In this document: piece after piece, positions 1,816 through 53,320 of the stretch
How the letters are laid out: every line of letters starts with the position of its first letter
Numbering within the stretch: position 1 is the first letter of the stretch
NCBI GenBank assembly: GCA_963732115.1
Contig: CAVSYN010000005.1
Coordinates: 65,410 to 129,409, forward strand
Source: an uncultured Bacteroidales bacterium
GTDB taxonomy: Bacteria > Bacteroidota > Bacteroidia > Bacteroidales > VadinHA17
Reading direction: 5' to 3'
Length of the DNA: 64,000 nucleotides
Translations under genes and position numbers: made by a program
The notes under the pieces: model-generated
What the model was told of the DNA's origin: nothing
The model's database searches: none
Seen by the model: only the letters and a program-made list of their open reading frames with translations

Positions 1816-1968
1816 ACCTCTCCCAAATTCCTTCTCAGTGGTTTATGAACTCATCCCCCGAGGGATTGTCTAAAAAGCAACCTTTTATGTTTTTACCCCT
1901 AAATCCCCCAGGGGGGACTTATTGATTTATTGATGTTTATAAAGCCCCCCTTGGGGGGTTGGGGGGTA
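1816..1968. repeat. composite G/C-run palindromic intergenic repeat, copy 1
   Basis: Contains ccttctcagtgg (1830-1841), hairpin atcccccgagggat, acccctaaatcccccaggggggac (1895-1918) and agccccccttggggggttggggggt (1943-1967). Module for module it is the reverse complement of the element at 53107-53256. Confidence 0.65.
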
Positions 1969-2132
1969 AATATAGACTTTATCGACAACCCGTAAAATGC
2001 TTAATTACAACTATATAGCCCCTTACCTTAGGCTTAAGGGAAAGGTATTGGCATGGGTTAAGATTAATAAGCGCAGAAGGCAGTTCATATTATATCCCTG
2101 TGATGCCTTAACCGCCGGTAAAGAAAAACTCT

Positions 2133-3188: not shown

Positions 3189-3288
3189 GCCCTTGAAGAA
3201 TCAAGTATATGTTTGAGATTGCCTGTGTACTATTCAAAGAACAAATTGCGTGCCAAATCTGTAAAAATACCCGTGTTTATTCTTAATT

Positions 3289-4545
3289 TTGACTGTCAGT
3301 AATCTTAGTAGATCTGAAGTGCGTAAACGCCTGGCATTCTTTCTGGTGATCCTCCTGGTTGCGGGTGTGGCTCTGCTTGGGTATTTCCTCCACCAGAGCA
3401 GGCAGACCCTGTATACCGATCCGTTCAAAGCTGTCGGCTCTGACGCCTGTTTTATTATTGAGACAGCCGACCTCCAAAGCTTTCTTAATTCGATGACCAC
3501 GGATAAGGGTATTTTTTCGGAGATCGGAAAAATAAAGGAATTTTCAGGGTTCAATTCAAAACTGAAATATCTTGCTGACCAGGCTAACCAACCGGCTTTT
3601 AATAAGCTGGTGCAGGAAGGCACGGCACTTATTTCATTTCATCCCACCCCCAACGGTAAGCTTGAACCGCTGTTATCAAAGGCAGTTCCGGCTGACATCA
3701 GCTACAGGCACCTCAGGGAAGCATTGCTTACCTCCGGTATAAATGGGATAACAGAACTCCGGATAAACGGAAAACGGGTACTGGGGCTTCCATACAGTAT
3801 TGATAGTGCAAGCGATACGGTTTTTGTCACAACAAATTCCGGCCTGCTGATCTCCAGCACGTCAAGGGGGTTGATAAAAAGAGCATTTATTCCGGCCACT
3901 CCCGAAACAGACATACGAAGCGCACCTGGCTTTTCGCGAATATTGATGTCTGCAGGCAAAAAGGAAGACAAATTGTTTATAATCTTCGGTAATCTGGCAG
4001 GGGTACTGGAACCTGTTTTCAAATCAGGTGGTTTGTCGCTAGAGAATAAAATTGCAAAGCTTGGCGGAAGTGCAGGAGGTGATATCTTTATAAATGATGA
4101 TGGGATTTCCCTGAGCGGCTACGCTGAAAGTAATGATCAATCGGAAATACTGTTCAGGTTTAAGTCAGTTCAACCGGCAGAATTTCAGACCTACAAGGTC
4201 CTTCCCGCCGAAACAGGCCTTTTTGAATCAATAGCATATTCTCCTGAAAGTACAGGAAATAGCACTCATCCACCTCTATCGGGTATTATAAACACCCTTG
4301 CTTCCAGGCTGAAACCTTACCTGGGAGAGGAAGTAACCAAAGCCTATATTGCAATCAGAAACAATCCATCCGGCGAAAACTCCCTTGTCATTTACGAATT
4401 AAAAAACAGGGTCCAGTGCGAGAACATTTTGCTTGAGACATTAAAAGAACAATTATCAATCAACTATTTCCGGCCGGATGAGCAGACTAAAATACCCATT
4501 TACTATACAGGCACGGTCAGGACTTATTTCAGCACTCAGGCCTGA
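3289..4545 (+). CDS. membrane-anchored hypothetical protein (probably the N-terminal part of one ~900-aa gene split by a frame break)
   Basis: 418-aa ORF with an N-terminal signal-anchor RKRLAFFLVILLVAGVALLGYFL. The TTG at 3289 overlaps a TAnnTTTG box (3284-3291), so the GTG at 3319 (MRKRLAFF) is a likelier start. It overlaps the next ORF by 68 nt in the +1 frame. Confidence 0.55.
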   Translation: MTVSNLSRSEVRKRLAFFLVILLVAGVALLGYFLHQSRQTLYTDPFKAVGSDACFIIETADLQSFLNSMTTDKGIFSEIGKIKEFSGFNSKLKYLADQANQPAFNKLVQEGTALISFHPTPNGKLEPLLSKAVPADISYRHLREALLTSGINGITELRINGKRVLGLPYSIDSASDTVFVTTNSGLLISSTSRGLIKRAFIPATPETDIRSAPGFSRILMSAGKKEDKLFIIFGNLAGVLEPVFKSGGLSLENKIAKLGGSAGGDIFINDDGISLSGYAESNDQSEILFRFKSVQPAEFQTYKVLPAETGLFESIAYSPESTGNSTHPPLSGIINTLASRLKPYLGEEVTKAYIAIRNNPSGENSLVIYELKNRVQCENILLETLKEQLSINYFRPDEQTKIPIYYTGTVRTYFSTQA

Positions 4546-5998
4546 TTTTACCCGGGGATTCCAGGATACCTTTTATGCCTTCTACGATAATTACATGATC
4601 ACCGGGAACTCGGGTGTCACGATCTCACGTTTTCTATATGACAATTTACTGAACAAGACCCTGGCAAACGATATGCTGTACCGCGATTTTGAAAAGACTC
4701 TGCCAAGCAGGGCAGGGTATCTGTTCTACTGCGTTCCATCACAGATAACCGACTACCTGTCAGCATACCTTGATAAGGATATTATGAAGGGAATCAGGGC
4801 AAATAAAACTTCGATAAACAAAATCCAGTCAATAGGGTTTCAGCTTGCTCCGATTAACGGGATGATCTATAACAGTCTGTCGGTCAGATATAAAGATGAG
4901 GTCGTTGAGAAATCCAATACTGAATGGGAGACATTGCTCGACACCACAGCCGGAATAAAGCCATTCTTCTTCACCAATCATAACACCGGTGCAAAGGAGA
5001 TATTTGTACAGGATATCAAGAACAACGCCTATCTTATCAATGCTGCAGGAAGGGTGCTGTGGAAGGTGCCCCTGAAAGAGAGAATAATGAGCCAGGTTTA
5101 CATGATCGACTACTACCGGAACGGGAAATACCAACTGCTGTTTTCGGGTAAAAACAACCTGCATCTGCTTGACAGGAACGGGAACTATGTTGAAAGATAC
5201 CCTGTCAGATTAAGGTCGCCTGCTTCAAATCCGCTTGCCCTTTTTGATTATGATAACAACCAGACTTACAGGCTGATAATTACCGGAGAGGATAAAATGG
5301 TTTACCTGTATGATAAAACAGGCAGTGTTGTGAAAGGATGGGAGCCATTCAGGACTGCAGGTCTTGTTACAGCTGAAGCAAGCTTTTACAGGGTCTCGGG
5401 TAAGGACTTTATAGTCGTTGCCGATGAGTCGTCAATTTATTTTCTTGACCGTTCGGGTAAGGTAAGGCTTCAACCCAGGGAGGCAGTTATAAAAGCCAAA
5501 GGGTCAACATTACGGTTTACCCCGGGGTCAGATCCCTTCCTTGTTTGCACCTCTCCTAACGGGACCATCCAGTATATTTATTTCAGTGGAGAAGTAAGGA
5601 AATCAAGCCTTAGAGAATTCTCCTTTGACCATTCCTTCGATTTTTTTGACGTAGATGGTGATGGTTTTGGCGAATATGTTTTTATTGACAAGGGTGTTTT
5701 ATACCTTTATGATCAAGACAGGAAAGAAATGTTTTCCAGAGATTTCAATTCGGATAAACTGGGGGGGCCAATGAATTTTATCTTTTCTTCAGCAGACAGG
5801 AAAATAGGGGTTTTTGACATGAACAAGAACCTTATTTACCTGATTAACAGCAAAGGAGAAATAATGAATGGATTTCCTCTCCGGGGAGCTTCAATGTTCT
5901 CCATCGGAAAGCTTTCGGCCGGTAATGAATGGCACCTGATCGTAGGCGGAACAGACAGGTTTATGTATAATTACAAATTGGACACCACTTTAAAGTAA
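4478..5998 (+). CDS. beta-propeller-like repeat protein (probably the C-terminal part of the preceding gene)
   Basis: 506-aa ORF with six to seven ~45-aa repeats of the form hYhhD..G....GFP: YLINAAGRVLWKVPL, LHLLDRNGNYVERYPVRL, VYLYDKTGSVVKGWEPF, IYFLDRSGKVRL, LYLYDQDRKEMF, IYLINSKGEIMNGFPL. It also has an FG-GAP-like DVDGDGFGEYVF. It has no signal peptide of its own. Confidence 0.55.
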   Translation: MSRLKYPFTIQARSGLISALRPDFTRGFQDTFYAFYDNYMITGNSGVTISRFLYDNLLNKTLANDMLYRDFEKTLPSRAGYLFYCVPSQITDYLSAYLDKDIMKGIRANKTSINKIQSIGFQLAPINGMIYNSLSVRYKDEVVEKSNTEWETLLDTTAGIKPFFFTNHNTGAKEIFVQDIKNNAYLINAAGRVLWKVPLKERIMSQVYMIDYYRNGKYQLLFSGKNNLHLLDRNGNYVERYPVRLRSPASNPLALFDYDNNQTYRLIITGEDKMVYLYDKTGSVVKGWEPFRTAGLVTAEASFYRVSGKDFIVVADESSIYFLDRSGKVRLQPREAVIKAKGSTLRFTPGSDPFLVCTSPNGTIQYIYFSGEVRKSSLREFSFDHSFDFFDVDGDGFGEYVFIDKGVLYLYDQDRKEMFSRDFNSDKLGGPMNFIFSSADRKIGVFDMNKNLIYLINSKGEIMNGFPLRGASMFSIGKLSAGNEWHLIVGGTDRFMYNYKLDTTLK

Positions 5999-22440: not shown

Positions 22441-23802
22441 TCAGCTGAAAAGCGACCGCACCAGTGCTTCCACCTTACCGACCTGTATTACTTCAATTTC
22501 AGTCCCCTTGTATGACAGGTTCCTGTGAAATTTTGAAATATATATCTTCCTGAAACCCATTTTTGAAGCCTCTTTAATGCGTTGTTCAATCCGTGAAACC
22601 GGTCGGATCTCTCCGGAAAGGCCCACTTCACCTGAAAAACATATATCCTTTCCTGCCGGTATATCAAGGTTTGAAGATAGCACGGAACTTATAATTGCGA
22701 GGTCAATTGCCGGATCTTCGACTTTTATCCCACCGGCTATATTCAGGAAAACATCTTTGACCCCAAGCCTGAATCCTGCTCTTTTTTCAAGTACTGCAAG
22801 AAGCATATTAAGGCGCCTTATATCAAATCCTGTCGAACTCCTCTGAGGTGTTCCGTACACGGCGCTGCTGACAAGAGCCTGGGTCTCGATCAGAAATGGT
22901 CTGATACCGTCCACTGTGGCTGCAATTGATATTCCGCTGAGAGGTTCGTCGTGCTGGTTTATAAACATCTCGGATGGATTAGCAACTTCTCTTAGTCCGC
23001 TTTCCAGCATTTCGAAAATTCCAAGCTCTGAAGTTGACCCGAACCTGTTCTTGACCGACCTGAGGATACGGTAAATATAATTGTTGTCACCTTCAAAGTA
23101 AAGCACCACATCGACAATATGCTCAAGCACTTTGGGCCCGGCAAGAGTCCCATCCTTTGTTATGTGCCCGATAAGAAAAACCGGGATACCCGTGATCTTT
23201 GAATACTTAAGTAGCTGAGCGGCACATTCCCTTACCTGCGAAACTGAACCTGCCGAGGATTCAAGAATTCCAGTCCTGATTGTCTGAATTGAATCTACGA
23301 TAATTAATCCGGGTTTTATATTTTCAGCCTGTGCAAGTATACTTTCAAGCTCCGTCTCGCTGTAAACATAACATAATGGATTTGATTTCTTCAGCCTTTT
23401 AGCCCTCAGGCTGATCTGTTCCTCACTTTCCTCTCCTGATACATAAAGAATAGTTTTTTCCTTAAGAGCCAGTGCAAGCTGAAGGGCAAGAGTTGATTTA
23501 CCGACGCCCGGTTCTCCGCCAAGCAGTATCAATGATCCGGCAACCATGCCTCCTCCGAGTATCCGGTCGAGTTCAGGAATACCGGTTTTCTGCCTGTTAT
23601 GCTCGTCTGAACTGACACTGCTCAAAAGCTCAGGCTTCCTTTTCTCCTGGCTAAGAACAAAAGCGCTTTCACGCGAGGTAGCCGGGGCTACGATCTCCTC
23701 ATGGTATGTATTCCATTCCTTGCATGAAGGGCATCTTCCGATCCATTTTGGCGATTCGGCACCGCAGTTCTGACAGACAAAGACAGTTTTGGTTTTTGAC
23801 AT
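22441..23802 (-). CDS. radA: DNA repair protein RadA/Sms
   Basis: 453 aa. N-terminal zinc finger CQNCGAESPKWIGRCPSCKEW, Walker A GGEPGVGKST, KNRFG motif, Lon-like C-terminal domain. Confidence 0.92.
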   Translation of the reverse strand: MSKTKTVFVCQNCGAESPKWIGRCPSCKEWNTYHEEIVAPATSRESAFVLSQEKRKPELLSSVSSDEHNRQKTGIPELDRILGGGMVAGSLILLGGEPGVGKSTLALQLALALKEKTILYVSGEESEEQISLRAKRLKKSNPLCYVYSETELESILAQAENIKPGLIIVDSIQTIRTGILESSAGSVSQVRECAAQLLKYSKITGIPVFLIGHITKDGTLAGPKVLEHIVDVVLYFEGDNNYIYRILRSVKNRFGSTSELGIFEMLESGLREVANPSEMFINQHDEPLSGISIAATVDGIRPFLIETQALVSSAVYGTPQRSSTGFDIRRLNMLLAVLEKRAGFRLGVKDVFLNIAGGIKVEDPAIDLAIISSVLSSNLDIPAGKDICFSGEVGLSGEIRPVSRIEQRIKEASKMGFRKIYISKFHRNLSYKGTEIEVIQVGKVEALVRSLFS

Positions 23803-23897
23803 AATATAAATTTAGCTGTATTTTCTGTATCAATAATATTTCATGTTGATTTTCTTTCAATAAGATCAGGGGCAAATCTGGTACCACCCATGGGAGA

Positions 23898-24676
23898 CAT
23901 GCACTCACCCCCTTTGATTCCCCCTCTCTACTCTGTAACTCTTTATACACATCTTCCTTGTTGTTAAATATGGTTATTGTTTCGTGATTATTAATTCTGC
24001 ACCCTCCTGATAGCTTGCGGGAATATTGACCAGACACGGCCGGCTGGCAGGATCGTTAAGCTCGAATGCCCTGTCAGGTGCTTAACAAAGCAGTCATGAA
24101 TATGACTGAATATGAATAACCTCCGGTGCAACCGGAGGTAGGCAGGCTCTCCAGATGTCAAGCCCTGAAGGGCCTTAATATAGTTGCATCTTAAGAAGAG
24201 GAGTTTTGACGAGGAATATAGGAGCCGGATAATTCAATCCGGTATAAAGATTGATGAGAGGTATTTCCCCTAGACTGCATATTCAGCTCCTTCAGAGCTG
24301 ACAATCGTAGAGAGATCAGCCGCCCCCGGTTTGCACCGGGAGTTATTCACATCGCACTACTCCGTGGTGCCTTTGTTAAGCCCTTTCAGGGCTTCGGACT
24401 ATGTAGACAATCCGGGATTCATGTACTACATAAGGGATTTAACAAATCCCTTAACACAGTAACAAGCTAGATATTGTAACTCATCAAGTATTATATGGGT
24501 GACAATAAACATATTACCTATAACAATATGGTATTTACCAACAAAGAACATAAAGTATTAGAACAAAAGATGTTTATAAAAGGTAGACTATGTAAAGAGG
24601 GGGAACAAATAGATATTCAGCATTATAACTCCCCATCTTTGCGAAGCAGAGAGGGGGTATGGGGGGTGAGTACATG
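23898..24676. other. ORF-free, hairpin-dense foldback element (candidate large structured ncRNA or foldback MITE)
   Basis: Terminal inverted repeats catgcactcaccccc (23898-23912) and ggggggtgagtacatg (24661-24676). Long-range complementarity: 24081-24090 cttaacaaag with 24371-24380 ctttgttaag, and 24113-24120 tgaataac with 24342-24349 gttattca. There are many local stem-loops. See finding 1. Confidence 0.5.
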
Positions 24677-24715
24677 AAACAGCTAATGATTTCAGAAGTA
24701 TACTTTCAAATCCTT

Positions 24716-25732
24716 TCAGGCAATCTTCTTTTCTTCATGATTTCTCCTGAAGATGAGGAAAAATGAAATCGTTCCGACTATGATAACAAACAGCATCTGC
24801 GATTCATGGCTGAGAAAAGCATAAATCAGGCCATCTTCAAGTTTAACACCTTCGACAAAAGCCAGTCCGCGGGAAATGATATAATGGAATGCCCCGAGCC
24901 CGCTCTGTACCGGGGCAGACATAGCCAGGCCTCCTATTACAAGGAGAAAAACGCTGTCTCCAAGTGTCAGATGGGATGTGGGTTCAATTGAAAAGACCAC
25001 CACCCAGGTCATAAGCAAATAGGCGAACCACATAAAGACCGTATGAAATATGAACTCCCATTTCCTTTGAAGATTTGTAATGGTTTTCAATCCGTTGATC
25101 ACTCCTCTTGCAAGATCGAAGATCTTTGAAAAAAACTTTGTTTTTCGCAGAGACTTTCTGTATTTTATCAAAAGGAACCCTGAAAGGAACGCGACGAATG
25201 CGATTATGACCCAGATTACCCATGTAAAACCAAACAGCGAAAATACTTTCTCCTGCAGCGGAACAAATATGCTGACTTTCAGGAACTGGTTTATCTGCTT
25301 CCCTCTGAAAAGGATCAGGCCAAACATTATTGCAAGGAGAGCAAGAAAATCAATAGTCCGTTCTATAACCACAGTCCCGATAAGCTGGTCGACAGGGATC
25401 TTTTCTTTCTTTCCGAGAGCAACGCACCTTGTTATCTCGCCTACTCTTGGCAATGCCAGGTTTGCAAGGTAGCCTGTCATTAAAGAATAAAAGGTACTTG
25501 AAAAAGCGGGTTTATAACCCAGCGGATTGATGAGAATTATCCAGCGACGGGCCCTGCTCATAAATGCCAGTGCTCCAAAAATAATTGAAAGCACAACCCA
25601 TTTATAATCAGCTTCTTTCAGCCCTTCAACAAGCTTCTTGAACTCAACATTGCGGAATGCGAGCCACAGAAGAATAACTCCGATAATAAGAAAGATGAAA
25701 AACTTAAAGGTCTGAATTAAGCCTTTTCTCAA
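24716..25732 (-). CDS. flippase-like / lysyl-phosphatidylglycerol-synthase TM-domain family membrane protein (UPF0104-like)
   Basis: 338-aa polytopic membrane ORF. The N-terminus KFFIFLIIGVILLWLAFRNVEFKKLVEGLKEADYKWVVLSI and the segment SRARRW are typical of this family as I recall it. It starts 2 nt after the panD stop. Confidence 0.65.
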   Translation of the reverse strand: MRKGLIQTFKFFIFLIIGVILLWLAFRNVEFKKLVEGLKEADYKWVVLSIIFGALAFMSRARRWIILINPLGYKPAFSSTFYSLMTGYLANLALPRVGEITRCVALGKKEKIPVDQLIGTVVIERTIDFLALLAIMFGLILFRGKQINQFLKVSIFVPLQEKVFSLFGFTWVIWVIIAFVAFLSGFLLIKYRKSLRKTKFFSKIFDLARGVINGLKTITNLQRKWEFIFHTVFMWFAYLLMTWVVVFSIEPTSHLTLGDSVFLLVIGGLAMSAPVQSGLGAFHYIISRGLAFVEGVKLEDGLIYAFLSHESQMLFVIIVGTISFFLIFRRNHEEKKIA

Positions 25733-25733
25733 C

Positions 25734-26084
25734 TTAGATCAGTTTATTTGTTTTGGTATCAGGGAAGATTAGTGTGGGTTTAAATGATCTGGCTTCCTGA
25801 AAATCGACCGATGCAAACGACATAATCAGAACAACATCACCCACGACCACCTTTCTGGCGGCCGGACCATTCATGCAAATTTCACCTGAACCCCTCTTAC
25901 CTTTGATCACATATGTTTCAAGACGTTCGCCATTATTCATATTCAGGACCTGCACTTTTTCGTTCTCAATTATATTTGATGCGTCCATGAGGTCTTCATC
26001 AATTGCAATACTCCCTACATAATGCAGATTTGCATCAGTAACCGTCACCTTATGGATTTTAGATTTTAGTACCTCTATAAACAT
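25734..26084 (-). CDS. panD: aspartate 1-decarboxylase
   Basis: 116 aa. [30 protein letters not shown] contains the G-S self-processing site. Near-full-length PanD pattern. Confidence 0.92.
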
Positions 26085-26135: not shown

Positions 26136-26990
26136 TTACAAAGGAATTTCAATATTATCTATCAGCCTTACCTTTCCAGCTTTAGCTGCAATACAGCCGA
26201 AATACCTCTTACCTTTTTTTAATTCCGCCCTGGCTCTCACTGGCTTAAGTTCCGTTTCGTCGACGATGTTGAAATACTCAACACTGAATCCTTTAGTATT
26301 GTCGATGGATCTTCTAACATAGCTTTCCAAATCAGGTATATCATGATCCATTATCATCGTTGAGGCTATCTTGATCGTCTTATAAATAATGCCGGCTTTC
26401 TTCCTTATTTCAGGATCAAGCAATGTATTCCTGCTGCTCATCGCCAGACCATCATCCTCCCGTATAATCGGGCAGCCTTCGATTTTAACCTGACTTCCTG
26501 TCTGTCTGACAAGTTCCCTGATAACAGCAAGCTGCTGGAAGTCCTTTTGCCCGAAAAATGCATAGGCGGGCTTTACAATCTCAAACAGCCTGGTGATTAC
26601 CTGGGCAACTCCGTTGAAATGACCCGGCCGGTGCAATGCCTCCATCACATTGTCAAGATTCCCGAAATGAAATACCCTTTTATCCTCCACGGAATAAATT
26701 TCTTTATCATCCGGAGTAAATACAAGGTCATTTTCTCTGAGAACTTCCCTTAGCATAGCCAGGTCTTCTTTTACGTTCCTTGGATAATTCTTCAGGTCGT
26801 TTTTATCATTGAACTGGGTGGGATTGACATAAATGCTGACAACTATTACAGGACAGGATGAGGCCGCGGTGCGGACAAGTGAAAGATGTCCCTTGTGCAA
26901 TGCACCCATTGTTGGTACAAATCCTACAGGTGACAAATGGGCTCGCTTAAGATGATCCTCTAACTCACGGATCGTACTTACCACTTTCAT
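26136..26990 (-). CDS. panC: pantoate--beta-alanine ligase
   Basis: 284 aa. GFVPTMGALHKGHLSLV (HIGH-like motif of PanC) and FGQKDFQQL. Confidence 0.92.
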   Translation of the reverse strand: MKVVSTIRELEDHLKRAHLSPVGFVPTMGALHKGHLSLVRTAASSCPVIVVSIYVNPTQFNDKNDLKNYPRNVKEDLAMLREVLRENDLVFTPDDKEIYSVEDKRVFHFGNLDNVMEALHRPGHFNGVAQVITRLFEIVKPAYAFFGQKDFQQLAVIRELVRQTGSQVKIEGCPIIREDDGLAMSSRNTLLDPEIRKKAGIIYKTIKIASTMIMDHDIPDLESYVRRSIDNTKGFSVEYFNIVDETELKPVRARAELKKGKRYFGCIAAKAGKVRLIDNIEIPL

Positions 26991-46765: not shown

Positions 46766-46987
46766 ATACCTTTAAGAGTTCTGAAAAATCGTCTCTGTAG
46801 CCATTATTTATTTTGAGAATGCCCGTCCTTGAAGCTTTCATAGCCGTTGAAGTAGATATTGAACCGTGAGGTCAGGCCGTGATAAAACCGTTGTTGTGGC
46901 GGTGTTTTTTTCCACGGAGCAGTCAGGCAGGATCAGCAATAACCCGGCAAGAGCAAGTAATTTATATATTGATTTCCCTGCTGACAA
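46650..46987 (-). CDS. sprE: SprE/PorW-like lipoprotein, N-terminal pieces (three frame breaks)
   Basis: My translations across frames are (TTG 46987) SAGKSIYKLLALAGLLLILPDCSVEKNTATT | RFYHGLTSRFNIYFNGYESFKDG | ILKINNGYRDDFSELLKVFENSDPSTVSLCSTDMEKAIQKASKA | ISLKSITARPDFN... They show a lipobox and the KNT..R.YH.LT..FN.YFNG pattern I associate with SprE-family proteins. Track ORF 46650..46841 is the third piece. Confidence 0.55.
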
Positions 46988-47068
46988 TAAGTTAACTTTA
47001 ATACTATAAACTTACTATATCCGAGTATAGTATTTCAAAGTTTGTTAAAATTGGAACAGGCCGTATAA

Positions 47069-47308
47069 TCAGGCTGAAATAACTCTTTTTATTTCCGGGA
47101 CTTCCTGCATGATTGCCTGTTCCACACCTGCCTTCAGGGTCTGCAGGCTGAACGGACAACCGTGACAGGCGCCGGTCAGCTTTACCTTCACTGTAAGATC
47201 ATCAGTTATTTCAACCAGGTCGATATCGCCTCCGTCATTCTGAAGGTAAGGCCTCACTCTGTTAAGGGCTTTTAAAACCCTTTCTTTCACACTTTTCTCA
47301 TCTGCCAT
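47069..47308 (-). CDS. NifU-like Fe-S cluster domain protein
   Basis: Track ORF 47069..47404. I start at MADEKSVKERV (47308). NifU C-terminal domain motif RPYLQNDGGDIDLVEI...GACHGCPFS. Confidence 0.8.
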   Translation of the reverse strand: MADEKSVKERVLKALNRVRPYLQNDGGDIDLVEITDDLTVKVKLTGACHGCPFSLQTLKAGVEQAIMQEVPEIKRVISA

Positions 47309-47336
47309 CTCTTTGTTTTTATTTGTTTTTAAATGA

Positions 47337-47519
47337 TTACTGTTTGTTGATTTCAACTCTGGCTGTTGGCTTGATATCCCTGTTCCTTTTTTCCACTTTT
47401 TCAATTACTTCATCAGCCAGGTCCATAAAAGCTTCCCCTGTTATGGAATCGTTAAAAGCGGCCGGATTGCCGCTGTCGCTTCCTTCACAGATACTCTGAA
47501 CGAGATGGTATCTGTCCAA
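47337..47519 (-). CDS. apbC: Mrp/ApbC Fe-S carrier ATPase, C-terminal fragment
   Basis: 60-aa ORF. The genuine part is LVQSICEGSDSGNPAAFNDSITGEAFMDLADEVIEKV. Confidence 0.65.
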   Translation of the reverse strand: MDRYHLVQSICEGSDSGNPAAFNDSITGEAFMDLADEVIEKVEKRNRDIKPTARVEINKQ

Positions 47520-47826
47520 GCAGCGGGATATTCATTTTCCGTGCAAGTGCTTTGCAGCCCTCTTTTCCGAAGATGTAATACCTGTTACCCGGGAGTTCGG
47601 CGGGTGTGAACCATGACATATTTTCGACCAGGCCAAGCACCGGAACATTAATCCTTTCATTTCTGAACATTGAAATCCCTTTCACTGCGTCTGCAAGCGC
47701 AACCTCCTGCGGCGTACTTACAATTATTGCACCAGTGACCGGAACTTCCTGAACAAGAGTCAGATGAATATCGCTGGTGCCCGGGAGGGAGGTCGAAAAT
47801 AAGATAGTCGAGTTCTCCCCAATCAC
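47485..47826 (-). CDS. apbC: Mrp/ApbC Fe-S carrier ATPase, middle fragment
   Basis: 113-aa ORF [42 protein letters not shown]...GLVENMSWF. Confidence 0.75.
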   Translation of the reverse strand: [113 protein letters not shown]

Positions 47827-48445
47827 CCTGGGTAATCAGCTGTTTCAGGAATCCTGAGGCCATTGGCCCCCTCCATACAACGGCTTCTGAAGGATTTACA
47901 AAAAAACCGGGCGATAGTACTTTCACTCCGTATTTTGTCAATGGCTTGATAAGGTCCGTATCTCCTGAGCGGACCACTTCAGGCTGGTAGCCTTCAGCGC
48001 CGAACATTCTGGGGATAGACGGTCCGAAAACATCTGCATCAAGAAGCCCGACAGAAAATCCTTTTGCCGCCAGGGCAACGGCAAGGTTTACAGCAATAGT
48101 CGTCTTCCCTACGCCTCCTTTACCTGATGAAACCGCAACAATATTTTTCACACCGGGCAGAACCTCTTTTGACTTTTCATGGCTTAAAGGAACAACTGTT
48201 TTCGGTTTGATTTTTATCTGCCTGATTACAGCATCAGTTCCGAGTACCTCTTTTAGTGTTCTTGCAACGGAGCTCCTTATTGAAGACATAAACGGATCAT
48301 TCGATCTTTCAGGTTCAAGAGTTACTGAAATACCATCTTCGCCCGATTCAACCTCAGAGATCATTCCCAACGCCACCAGATCCATTCCTTTTTCAGGATG
48401 GATCACTTTTGAAAGTGCTTTTAATACCTGTTCTTTAGTAAACAT
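47657..48445 (-). CDS. apbC: Mrp/ApbC Fe-S carrier ATPase, N-terminal fragment
   Basis: 262-aa ORF. The N-terminal DUF59-like part is VLKALSKVIHPEKGMDLVALGMI, and the deviant Walker A is VSSGKGGVGKTT. The last ~45 aa are out of frame. Confidence 0.85.
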   Translation of the reverse strand: MFTKEQVLKALSKVIHPEKGMDLVALGMISEVESGEDGISVTLEPERSNDPFMSSIRSSVARTLKEVLGTDAVIRQIKIKPKTVVPLSHEKSKEVLPGVKNIVAVSSGKGGVGKTTIAVNLAVALAAKGFSVGLLDADVFGPSIPRMFGAEGYQPEVVRSGDTDLIKPLTKYGVKVLSPGFFVNPSEAVVWRGPMASGFLKQLITQGDWGELDYLIFDLPPGHQRYSSDSCSGSSGHWCNNCKYAAGGCACRRSERDFNVQK

Positions 48446-53042: not shown

Positions 53043-53106
53043 AACTTTTTTTCAAATTTAGTGATTCTTTTAAGAAAAGGAAACATCTGTAAGAGAGGGT
53101 TAGTTC

Positions 53107-53256
53107 GCCCCCAACCCCTTAAAGGGGGCTTTTTTCGTGTTCAAAAGTCCCCTTCAGGGGATTTAGGGGCAGAATTTACACAGGGGAGGCACAGAGTTCC
53201 ACTGAGGATGCTCCCACACCTATTTAGCAAAAAAGCCCCTTGAAGGGGGTTGGGGG
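53107..53256. repeat. composite G/C-run palindromic intergenic repeat, copy 2
   Basis: gcccccaaccccttaaagggggc (53107-53129), gtccccttcaggggatttaggggc (53148-53170), a ccactgagg module (~53200), and agccccttgaagggggttggggg (53234-53256). The two end modules are inverted copies of each other. Track ORF 53061..53243 is a translation artefact of this repeat. Confidence 0.65.
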
Positions 53257-53320
53257 TTTCCAAAAAAAATGTAGGTTTGCAGATGGAATAATAATTCTGT
53301 TAATTAAAAATATACAATCT

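Follow-up and report, generated by a model that had tools for sequence, protein, structure and literature searches.

What occupies the long intergenic gap beside radA in the genome of an uncultured Bacteroidales bacterium? In a stretch of 64,000 nucleotides (nt) from this organism (contig CAVSYN010000005.1, positions 65,410 to 129,409, numbered here from its first letter and referred to as the window), radA is separated from an LPG-synthase-like gene, panD and panC by a gap that carries a 0.78-kb imperfect foldback with mirrored hairpins. An earlier note on this DNA favoured for the segment (23898-24676) a function tied to the radA/panCD spacer, as an RNA or as a DNA structure under selection, and offered as the alternative a non-autonomous foldback miniature inverted-repeat transposable element (MITE) or small palindromic repeats nested in several copies. 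In the present study, that alternative was borne out and could be resolved into three separable layers: most probably, the segment consists of three inverted-repeat mobile or dispersed elements nested in one another, all of which are now non-autonomous. The inverted repeats and hairpins listed for the segment could all be located, and the gap is indeed, at 907 nt, the longest run in the window that lacks an open reading frame (ORF) of at least 120 codons. It is not the largest by far, since a run of 888 nt (46772-47659) likewise lacks long frames, although small genes lie inside it.

The outermost layer, here called unit A, belongs to a dispersed family. A scan of 185,579 species genomes with the exact pattern CATGYACTCACCCCC-N3-8-CCCCCTC recovered at least 117 genome stretches, almost all of them in Bacteroidales/Rikenellaceae metagenome-assembled genomes (MAGs) whose sources were fens, peat, lake sediment and reactors; one MAG supplied about 25 contigs among the matches listed, and many copies lay at contig ends. 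The ends of the segment thus recur in these 117 or more loci, and BLASTN of the window element against them gave matches at 23898-23938 and 24587-24676 only. Where the terminus occurs as an inverted pair, the distance is typically 117-123 nt, and 10 intact units of this length were aligned end to end with the two halves of the window's copy joined together. Each unit is composed of CATGYACTCACCCCC, a first G/C-run hairpin, a spacer, a second G/C-run hairpin and GGGGGTGAGTRCATG, with the consensus CATGTACTCACCCCC-(4-8 nt)-CCCCCTCTCTRC-N4-GYAAAGAGGGGG-(about 35 nt, variable)-CCCCTCTTTRC-N4-GYAGAGAGGGGG-(4-8 nt)-GGGGGTGAGTACATG. In the window, about 650 nt interrupt the loop of the first hairpin. 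What had been described as an insertion of about 50 nt in the right arm is instead the spacer and second hairpin of unit A (24604-24660). Units of 444-564 nt carry an ORF between the two hairpins, which encodes a DUF559 protein (PF04480, E = 2.8e-27), a Vsr-like PD-(D/E)XK nuclease, and is truncated in the 444-nt unit; an ORF of about 125-133 amino acids (aa) sits in a mini-cassette of about 560 nt with CATGTACTCACCCC terminal repeats and both G/C-run hairpins at its borders. Bracketing by terminal repeat and hairpin was observed on both sides of the gene in L043, L019 and L114 (loci with related sequence are designated by L and a number) and in part in L051 and L008. The 120-nt units look like gene-less derivatives of this small cassette, and the nuclease suggests that unit A might spread in a homing-like manner. 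No published description of DUF559 mini-cassettes was found in a literature search. Unit-A-like left ends (CATGYACTCACCCCC followed by CCCCCTCTC) were also seen outside Bacteroidota, in a Bacillota MAG (L042:3572-3700) and a Dehalococcoidales MAG (L062:280-429), and could reflect horizontal spread, related repeat families or mis-binned contigs.

The sequence that interrupts unit A is a second element, here called B. Its terminal motif was scanned as a 14-nt core with 0-1 mismatch through 1.59 Mb, comprising the fetched loci and the window, and gave 42 matches against about 0.5 expected by our own estimate. The terminus is preceded by a conserved CTAMY, the ends reading CTAMY-CTTTATACACATCT, and it often occurs in inverted pairs 133-925 nt apart; these pairs delimit short, multi-copy elements with no cognate transposase of the DDE type inside. 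The window has just two other matches to this motif, one near 1944 and one near 22957, each unpaired and with a single mismatch. Full-length collinear relatives of B are present in L208 (78% identity) and L154 (68.5%) and differ in the extent of internal deletion. With the element ends placed at CTAMY, perfect duplications of 9-10 bp were scored in 4 of 11 complete B copies and duplications of 8/9 in two more (L138 1583-2433 and the window), compared with 8 matched bases in only 1 of 110 cross-paired controls. All six of the empty sites that could be reconstructed are C-run/G-run hairpins in which the duplication lies across the apical loop. When B and one duplicate are removed from the window, the sequence CCCCCTCTCTAC-TCTG-TAAAGAGGGGG is restored, exactly the intact first hairpin of unit A. 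In combination, terminal inverted repeats and duplications of 9-10 bp mark a cut-and-paste element of the DDE type. The duplications of the IS4 family measure 9-12 bp, and the B terminus CTACCCTTTATACACATCT shares 15 of its 19 positions with the Tn5 mosaic end CTGTCTCTTATACACATCT; to judge from these ends, B may have been moved in trans by an IS4/IS50-like transposase. On one contig, L138, three B-type elements were found, one of them enclosing an intact transposase gene of the Y1 type (1583-2433) and another (1024-1324) containing unit-A-like sequence. This last case is the reverse of the nesting in the window, and it indicates that the A and B families insert into each other both ways.

The innermost layer lies in the interior of B, where two modules of about 90 nt, each with three hairpins (H0, H1 and H2), flank the core. 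A scan of metagenome contigs with an exact hairpin-module pattern recovered at least 120 stretches, and the two modules were the only interior parts of the segment with many relatives. Inverted doublets of modules occur with gaps of 0-170 nt, and inverted modules about 527 nt apart enclose an ORF of 148 aa that matches the Pfam family Y1_Tnp (PF01797, E = 1.4e-18). This Y1 protein has an HUH motif (NHLH) and a Y motif (YIKNQQEHH), and its score of 46.3 bits is under the NCBIfam IS200 equivalog cut-off of 55 bits; a PDB sequence search with it gave no meaningful match. Among the module matches listed, the gene was present in 32 loci, near full length in 23 of these, and the single contig L207 bears two copies. 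The central part of the window's segment had been described as an asymmetric core, which it is, but its identity is that of a pseudogene fragment of this transposase. Positions 24199-24270 read RSFDEEYRSRIIQSGIKIDERYFP, and the frame is open for two codons upstream (KK, 24193-24198), giving 26 codons before the stop (24271-24273); by tblastn, the relic corresponds to residues 121-148 of the full 148-aa protein at 64% identity (E = 1.7e-6). The statement that the gap has no credible ORF is true, but it passed over this in-frame remnant at 24199-24273, the last 26 codons of a transposase and their stop. The B copies of L154, the window and L208 differ only in how long a piece of the gene they retain, the remainder being about 115, 26 and about 3 codons, respectively. 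The core hairpin at 24224-24242 is present, although it falls inside the relic and is not kept in L154, and we treat it as incidental.

The modules themselves explain a property that had been claimed for the segment, namely stems that keep their pairing while differing in sequence. A total of 142 distinct modules were aligned to a structure that we specified; since the search pattern dictated TGAATAAC and some of H2, the invariance of TGAATAAC across modules is partly imposed. The loops are mostly GAA, and the window's left module has loops of 4 nt. Standard pairs were observed in 96.3% of the cells, compared with 82.7% in column shuffles and 33-54% when the partners were slid by 1-3 columns. 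Changes on both sides were found at 12 of 20 pairs, the double-change cells numbering 443 against 137 expected, and at the Y/R positions of H2, which the pattern left free, 84 copies had U-A, 58 had C-G and none was unpaired. The module that follows the stop codon of the gene has AGCTC..GAGCTG (R-type) and the opposite orientation in 20 of 20 loci, and the upstream module has AGCCC..GGGCTT (L-type) in all six loci in which it was matched; both flanks were matched in 6 loci, inverted each time. The window's right module fits the R-type pattern outright. Its left module, with a GCCC/GGGC stem in H2, misses the typing pattern and is L-type by inspection. One transposon, with left and right ends of distinct types, accounts for the mirrored, divergent hairpins, and their pairing is presumably kept because transposon ends work as hairpins. 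Stem covariation is real at the level of the family, but one pair in the window is less divergent than had been described: 24121-24137 and 24325-24340 are mostly identical with some indels, and compensatory differences occur at some stem positions only. DNA hairpins at transposon ends, together with their left and right variants, best explain the covariation, and not an RNA. A third module subfamily has a compensated H1, CCGTGGG..CCCACGG (e.g. L241, L168 and L186), and an H0 of TGCCGCGAAGTGGCA. In L187, two Y1 genes (172-609 and 4921-5358), whose identity to the main family is only about 33%, occur with one module of this third subfamily, which suggests that the lineages of transposase and end module co-diverge.

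Herein, we propose a stepwise origin for the segment. Unit A would have landed between the LPG-synthase-like gene and radA, and B would have entered the apical loop of its first hairpin with duplication of 9 bp of target. An IS200-like Y1 (HUH) element in the core of B would have undergone an internal deletion that spared only its last 26 codons. By analogy with IS608/ISDra2 and the TnpA-REP of E. coli, the Y1 enzyme might recognize the end modules as single-stranded DNA hairpins; pairing would then be under selection while the sequence drifts, and the left and right ends would have diverged. Because every layer is an inverted repeat, and the inner ones lie in or near the symmetry centre of the outer ones, the product is a 0.78-kb imperfect foldback with mirrored hairpins. 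Since the window's Y1 copy has no gene, it could be moved only in trans, if at all. Our data show the architecture of the segment, its homology to gene-bearing forms, the dispersal, the target duplications in hairpin loops, the covariation and the absence from a near relative; the enzymes that move each layer, and any mobility at the present day, we infer.

Could the folding of the segment be that of an RNA instead? The segment would then encode a large, structured non-coding RNA, or regulate radA or the pan operon in cis at the RNA level, with selection acting on RNA folding, and some results point in this direction. The minimum free energy of a 796-nt stretch is very low, -289 kcal/mol for the plus strand and -304 for the minus strand, compared with about -208 for dinucleotide shuffles (z = -12.2 and -11.6, respectively). 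The covariation is genuine and family-wide in all three hairpins, and the H2 loop has a closing T-G pair, which would be a wobble on one strand only, in 111 of the 142 copies. However, the two strands fold equally well, and such near-equal folding indicates a palindrome at the DNA level. No Rfam 15 family matched the whole window at the gathering threshold, and two chance-level snoRNA matches were all that 23600-24900 returned with E up to 10, so the comparison proposed in the earlier note yielded no relevant family. The covarying hairpins stand in both orientations in each element and bracket a transposase gene, the asymmetric centre is a protein-coding relic, and large internal deletions distinguish the copies. 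Moreover, the loops are mostly GAA triloops, which form unusually stable mini-hairpins in DNA. The segment is also missing from a close relative: a metagenome contig (L002), found through an exact-protein look-up with PanD, is about 96-97% identical over panC, panD, the LPG-synthase-like gene and radA, and its spacer from the LPG-synthase-like stop to the radA ATG is only 35 nt. None of the approximately 235 loci with related sequence encodes RadA or the LPG-synthase-like protein, and a single syntenic copy between radA and panCD, which would have spoken for an RNA, is thus not what the homologues represent. An RNA specific to this spacer, the reading first preferred, accordingly found no backing, and we regard it as extremely improbable. 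Exact-protein look-ups with RadA and the LPG-synthase-like protein gave none on record. BLASTN of the element gave no match in plasmid and phage collections and no second copy in the remaining window, and scans of viral contigs with the two repeat patterns gave 0 matches each, indicating no phage link.

The remaining rivals accept mobile DNA and divide it differently. A foldback MITE in one piece, that is, a non-autonomous element of 779 nt moved as a whole by one transposase, would agree with the clean 15-nt termini and the continuous pairing of the arms. Furthermore, the junction of the left end of A with a B terminus, in which B begins about 42-46 nt further in, is repeated in at least eight other loci (L033, L040, L057 (twice), L094, L098, L176 and L238), and the composite or a part of it may have been copied as a unit. 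Yet the outer shell exists alone as intact 120-nt units, the inner element also occurs where no unit A surrounds it (L055 and L208), the internal 9-bp duplication is the mark of a separate insertion event, and no other full-length 779-nt copy was found among the fetched loci; this explanation is very unlikely. It is also rather doubtful, albeit conceivable, that only two layers exist, B and the Y1 element being one "TIRtron"-like element whose ends comprise a terminal inverted repeat of about 20 nt and a three-hairpin module. The Y1 enzyme or its partners, rather than a DDE transposase, would in that case make the 9-10-bp duplications in hairpin loops. Terminal inverted repeats on either side of Y1 genes have precedent (TIRYT/TIRtrons, PMC3733652). 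The terminal motif lies at a constant 40-55 nt outside the module in many copies, in L138 (1583-2433) a complete Y1 gene and its two modules lie between copies of the motif, with an 8/9 duplication on the flanks, and no DDE gene was found with these ends, for which no dedicated search was made. On the other hand, most modules and Y1 genes have no such motif: a B terminus is present within 350 nt of 16 of the 125 assessable modules, and the other 109 (e.g. L150) are without one. Conversely, 3 of 5 assessable B termini in loci selected by unit A have no module, and some B-type elements lack modules altogether (L084, 133 nt) or enclose a unit A in their place (L138 1024-1324). The IS50-like termini and the IS4-family size of the duplications also argue against a two-layer origin, and to our knowledge the characterized Y1 transposases (IS608 and ISDra2) insert without target duplication. 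Three layers are thus favoured by B elements that lack a module or contain unit A and by the small number of modules near B termini.

Several results weigh against a three-layer origin, in addition to the constant spacing of motif and module. For four or five of the 11 complete B copies, the flanks offer no convincing duplication. An autonomous B element with a transposase was not present among the fetched loci (1.59 Mb), although no dedicated search was made, and the B termini of L061 and L180 have no DDE transposase next to them, their neighbours being only housekeeping genes or Y1 fragments. In the 64-kb window, tblastn revealed no intact Y1 or DUF559 gene, nor was an intact DDE gene seen there, for which no direct search was made. 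No target duplication is visible in 11 copies of unit A; one of 4 bp is possible, the terminal CATG being self-complementary. Finally, an exact empty site could not be found by comparison with L002, the spacer of which is too diverged from the 40-nt and 95-nt flanks of the window; the stretches 23803-23897 and 24677-24765 were checked as repeats and are unique sequence. Taking the parts together, we tentatively hypothesize that environmental Bacteroidales harbour a so far undescribed community of selfish elements centred on hairpins, of which the window would show one instance; this joint proposal is plausible but less likely than not. It would include a DUF559-only mini-cassette of about 560 nt bounded by CATGTACTCACCCCC repeats and two G/C-run hairpins, with high-copy 120-nt derivatives; an IS50-like MITE family specific for the apical loops of G/C-run hairpins and reciprocally nested with the cassette family; and a subclass 1.2 Y1 element with distinct left and right three-hairpin GAA-loop modules, dispersed in a REP-like manner and residing inside MITEs.

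The families behind the segment appear to be undescribed, and the kind itself is ordinary, being comparable to mosaics of repetitive extragenic palindromes (REPs) or bacterial interspersed mosaic elements (BIMEs), palindrome-associated transposable elements (PATEs), MITEs and insertion sequences that target palindrome loops. With the REP/REPIN-RAYT systems (REPtrons, BIMEs), the inner layer shares a small HUH Y1 gene flanked by inverted hairpin-forming repeats, the dispersal of these repeats singly or as inverted doublets, and covarying stems; the Y and Z2 REPs of E. coli likewise provide two repeat variants, one per side (PMC6006769). A REP, however, is a single palindrome of 20-40 nt with a GTAG/CGTC tag, whereas the modules here contain three hairpins and no such tag was seen. 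RAYTs are class 2, whereas the protein found here has the Y---Q--HH signature and the 148 aa of subclass 1.2 (class 1). Domesticated RAYTs are single-copy, unlike the two Y1 copies on the L207 contig, and the window's doublet keeps a gene relic, which makes it a deletion derivative of a gene-bearing copy, unlike REP doublets. Subclass 1.2 TnpA-Y1 proteins have been reported from Cyanobacteria and Bacteroidetes, at low copy number and with a mean length of 148 aa (Quentin et al. 2018, PMC6006769), and our protein has the same length and the subclass Y motif YIKNQQEHH. The subclass was described as generally without IS200-type terminal structures and with no REP-like repeats (PMC6006769), in contrast to the dispersed, covarying end modules observed here.

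IS200/IS605 elements and PATEs resemble the inner layer in the Y1_Tnp match, the HUH motif, the distinct hairpin ends and the decay to non-coding palindromic derivatives. The left and right ends of IS200/IS605 are unrelated, whereas the ends here are homologous inverted modules. IS200/IS605 elements have neither terminal inverted repeats nor target duplication; here, duplications of 9-10 bp were observed for the composite as bounded by CTTTATACACATCT, a boundary that may not be that of the Y1 element itself. The middle layer shares with the IS4 family (IS50/Tn5-like) and its MITEs the termini of about 19-20 bp starting with CT, the 9-10-bp duplications and the many short non-coding copies. It differs in that the cargo of B is the remains of another transposon or a palindromic unit, in that no IS4-type transposase was found with B ends, and in that all six B copies with a scoreable duplication sit apically in a G/C-run hairpin. 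IS1397 and ISKpn1 are IS3-family elements of enterobacteria that insert in the loops of BIME palindromic units with 3-4-bp duplications; they too target the loop of a repeated chromosomal hairpin and give repeats nested in repeats, but the ends and duplication size of B are IS4-like and its hosts are Bacteroidales. The work on TIRtrons/TIRYT (Di Nocera et al. 2013, PMC3733652) describes Y1 genes bracketed by terminal inverted repeats that are themselves possible repeat families. As given there, these repeats share GGGGWSAS or are unrelated to ours, and most cases belong to subclass 2.1 (PMC3733652). A term search of its text gave no mention of target duplications or hairpin-loop targeting (PMC3733652).

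Table. Features of the radA gap and its flanks (positions in the window), and related copies elsewhere (locus designations precede the positions).
Feature	Position	Strand	Sequence or basis
radA	22441-23802	-	flanking gene
Unit A overall	23898-23931 + 24592-24676		copy of a palindromic repeat of about 120 nt
Terminal inverted repeats	23898-23912 / 24662-24676		15 nt, 93% complementary
Unit A left terminal inverted repeat	23898-23912		CATGCACTCACCCCC; pairs with 24662-24676; aligns with 10 intact units of about 120 nt
Unit A hairpin 1, ascending half	23920-23931		CCCCCTCTCTAC; aligned to intact units, CCCCCTCTCTRC-loop4-GYAAAGAGGGGG
Target-site duplication, copy 1	23930-23938		ACTCTGTAA; direct repeat of 24587-24595, 8/9
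Element B	23939-24586		648 nt, non-autonomous, in the loop of unit A hairpin 1
B left terminus	23939-23957		CT-CTTTATACACATCTTCC; terminal motif matches
Subterminal inverted repeats	23942-23955 / 24567-24580		
Subterminal inverted repeats	23967-23980 / 24502-24515		
B left arm	23958-24090		collinear with the B copies of L208 and L154
Long-range arm pair	24080-24090 / 24371-24381		11/11 paired
L-type three-hairpin module	24091-24183	+	H0 24091-24108; TGAATAAC 24113-24120; H1 24120-24138; H2 24160-24176
Long-range arm pair	24110-24143 / 24319-24352		
Y1 (IS200-like) transposase 3'-end relic	24187-24273	+	tblastn and translation; DNA collinear with the longer L154 relic
R-type three-hairpin module, inverted	24279-24371	-	H2 24284-24300; H1 about 24322-24341; GTTATTCA 24342-24349; decayed H0 24352-24370
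B right arm	24372-24566		stem-loops 24378-24394 and 24432-24452; collinear with L208 and L154, including these hairpins
B right terminus	24567-24586		AAGATGTTTATAAAAGGTAG; inverted repeat of the left terminus
Target-site duplication, copy 2	24587-24595		ACTATGTAA; direct repeat of 23930-23938
Unit A hairpin 1, descending half	24592-24603		GTAAAGAGGGGG; aligned to intact units
Unit A variable central spacer	24604-24630		position of the DUF559 gene in full-length relatives
Unit A hairpin 2	24631-24657		CCCCATCTTTGC-GAAG-CAGAGAGGGGG; aligned to intact units
Unit A right terminal inverted repeat	24662-24676		GGGGGTGAGTACATG; pairs with the left end; found in dispersed genome loci
LPG_synthase_TM-like gene	24716-25732	-	flanking gene
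panD	25734-26084	-	flanking gene
panC	26136-26990	-	flanking gene
Perfect duplication around B	L138 1024-1324		CTTTTGAAG (9 bp)
Perfect duplication around B	L135		CCCGGGAGAG
Perfect duplication around B	L203		TCCCAAGAG
Perfect duplication around B	L084		TTATTTCTAA
DUF559 cassette	L043:5499-6062		
DUF559 cassette	L019:1048-1604		
DUF559 cassette	L114:~3573-4123		
DUF559 cassette	L051:~3253-3806		
DUF559 cassette	L111:3670-4113		truncated gene, 444 nt

With the segment read as three nested elements, a candidate large structured RNA is removed from the window, and its largest non-coding gap would be decayed mobile DNA. The families are abundant in Bacteroidales MAGs from fen, peat and sediment, and they break assemblies, as the many copies at contig ends indicate. 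For specialists in mobile DNA, the points of interest are the hairpin-loop targeting, the end modules of a subclass 1.2 Y1 element and the DUF559 mini-cassette. Because radA starts 35 nt past the preceding gene in L002, the hairpin-rich insert of 0.9 kb probably alters radA transcription in this strain; more speculatively, it may uncouple radA from the upstream operon. The last 15 or so codons of the LPG_synthase_TM-like gene (24716-24765, compared with L002:1700-1765) are far more diverged than the remaining gene, with C-terminal ends of GTISFFLIFRRNHEEKKIA in the window and GIISFYMIYRTHNLLKGANKNNS in L002, and the 3' end of this gene may have been remodelled together with the spacer.

The natural terminus CTTTATACACATCT (window 23941-23954 and 24568-24581) is one base off TCTTATACACATCT, the final 14 nt of the Tn5/Nextera mosaic end. 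Contamination with Nextera adapters was considered as its source and rejected: the motif is internal to contigs, consistently unlike the adapter and variable among copies, the sequence after it is that of the element, conserved, and not adapter, target duplications in hairpins accompany it, and it occurs in many independent assemblies, some of which, to judge from their names, may be long-read MAGs. Adapter trimmers or contamination screens could nevertheless clip or flag such genuine genomic sequence, the terminus being nearly that of the adapter, and repeats of the CTTTATACACATCT type may add to contig breaks.

Two more small palindromic units with G/C runs, of other sequence families, are present in the window (1844-1972 and 53105-53260) and are presumably the short G/C-run palindromic units that the earlier note had seen elsewhere. 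One reads TTTACCCC..CCCCCAGGGGGG..GATGTTTATAAAG-CCCCCCTTGGGGGG-TT-GGGGGGTAAA and includes a motif like the B terminus; another reads CCCCCAA-CCCCTTAAAGGGGG...CCCCTTGAAGGGGG-TTGGGGG. Elsewhere in the window, an Mrp/ApbC-like P-loop ATPase gene on the minus strand (47485-48445) is seemingly split into overlapping ORFs of 262 aa (47657-48445) and 113 aa (47485-47826), which could represent a frameshift, a pseudogene or a sequencing error, and a small NifU-like ORF (47069-47404) adjoins it.

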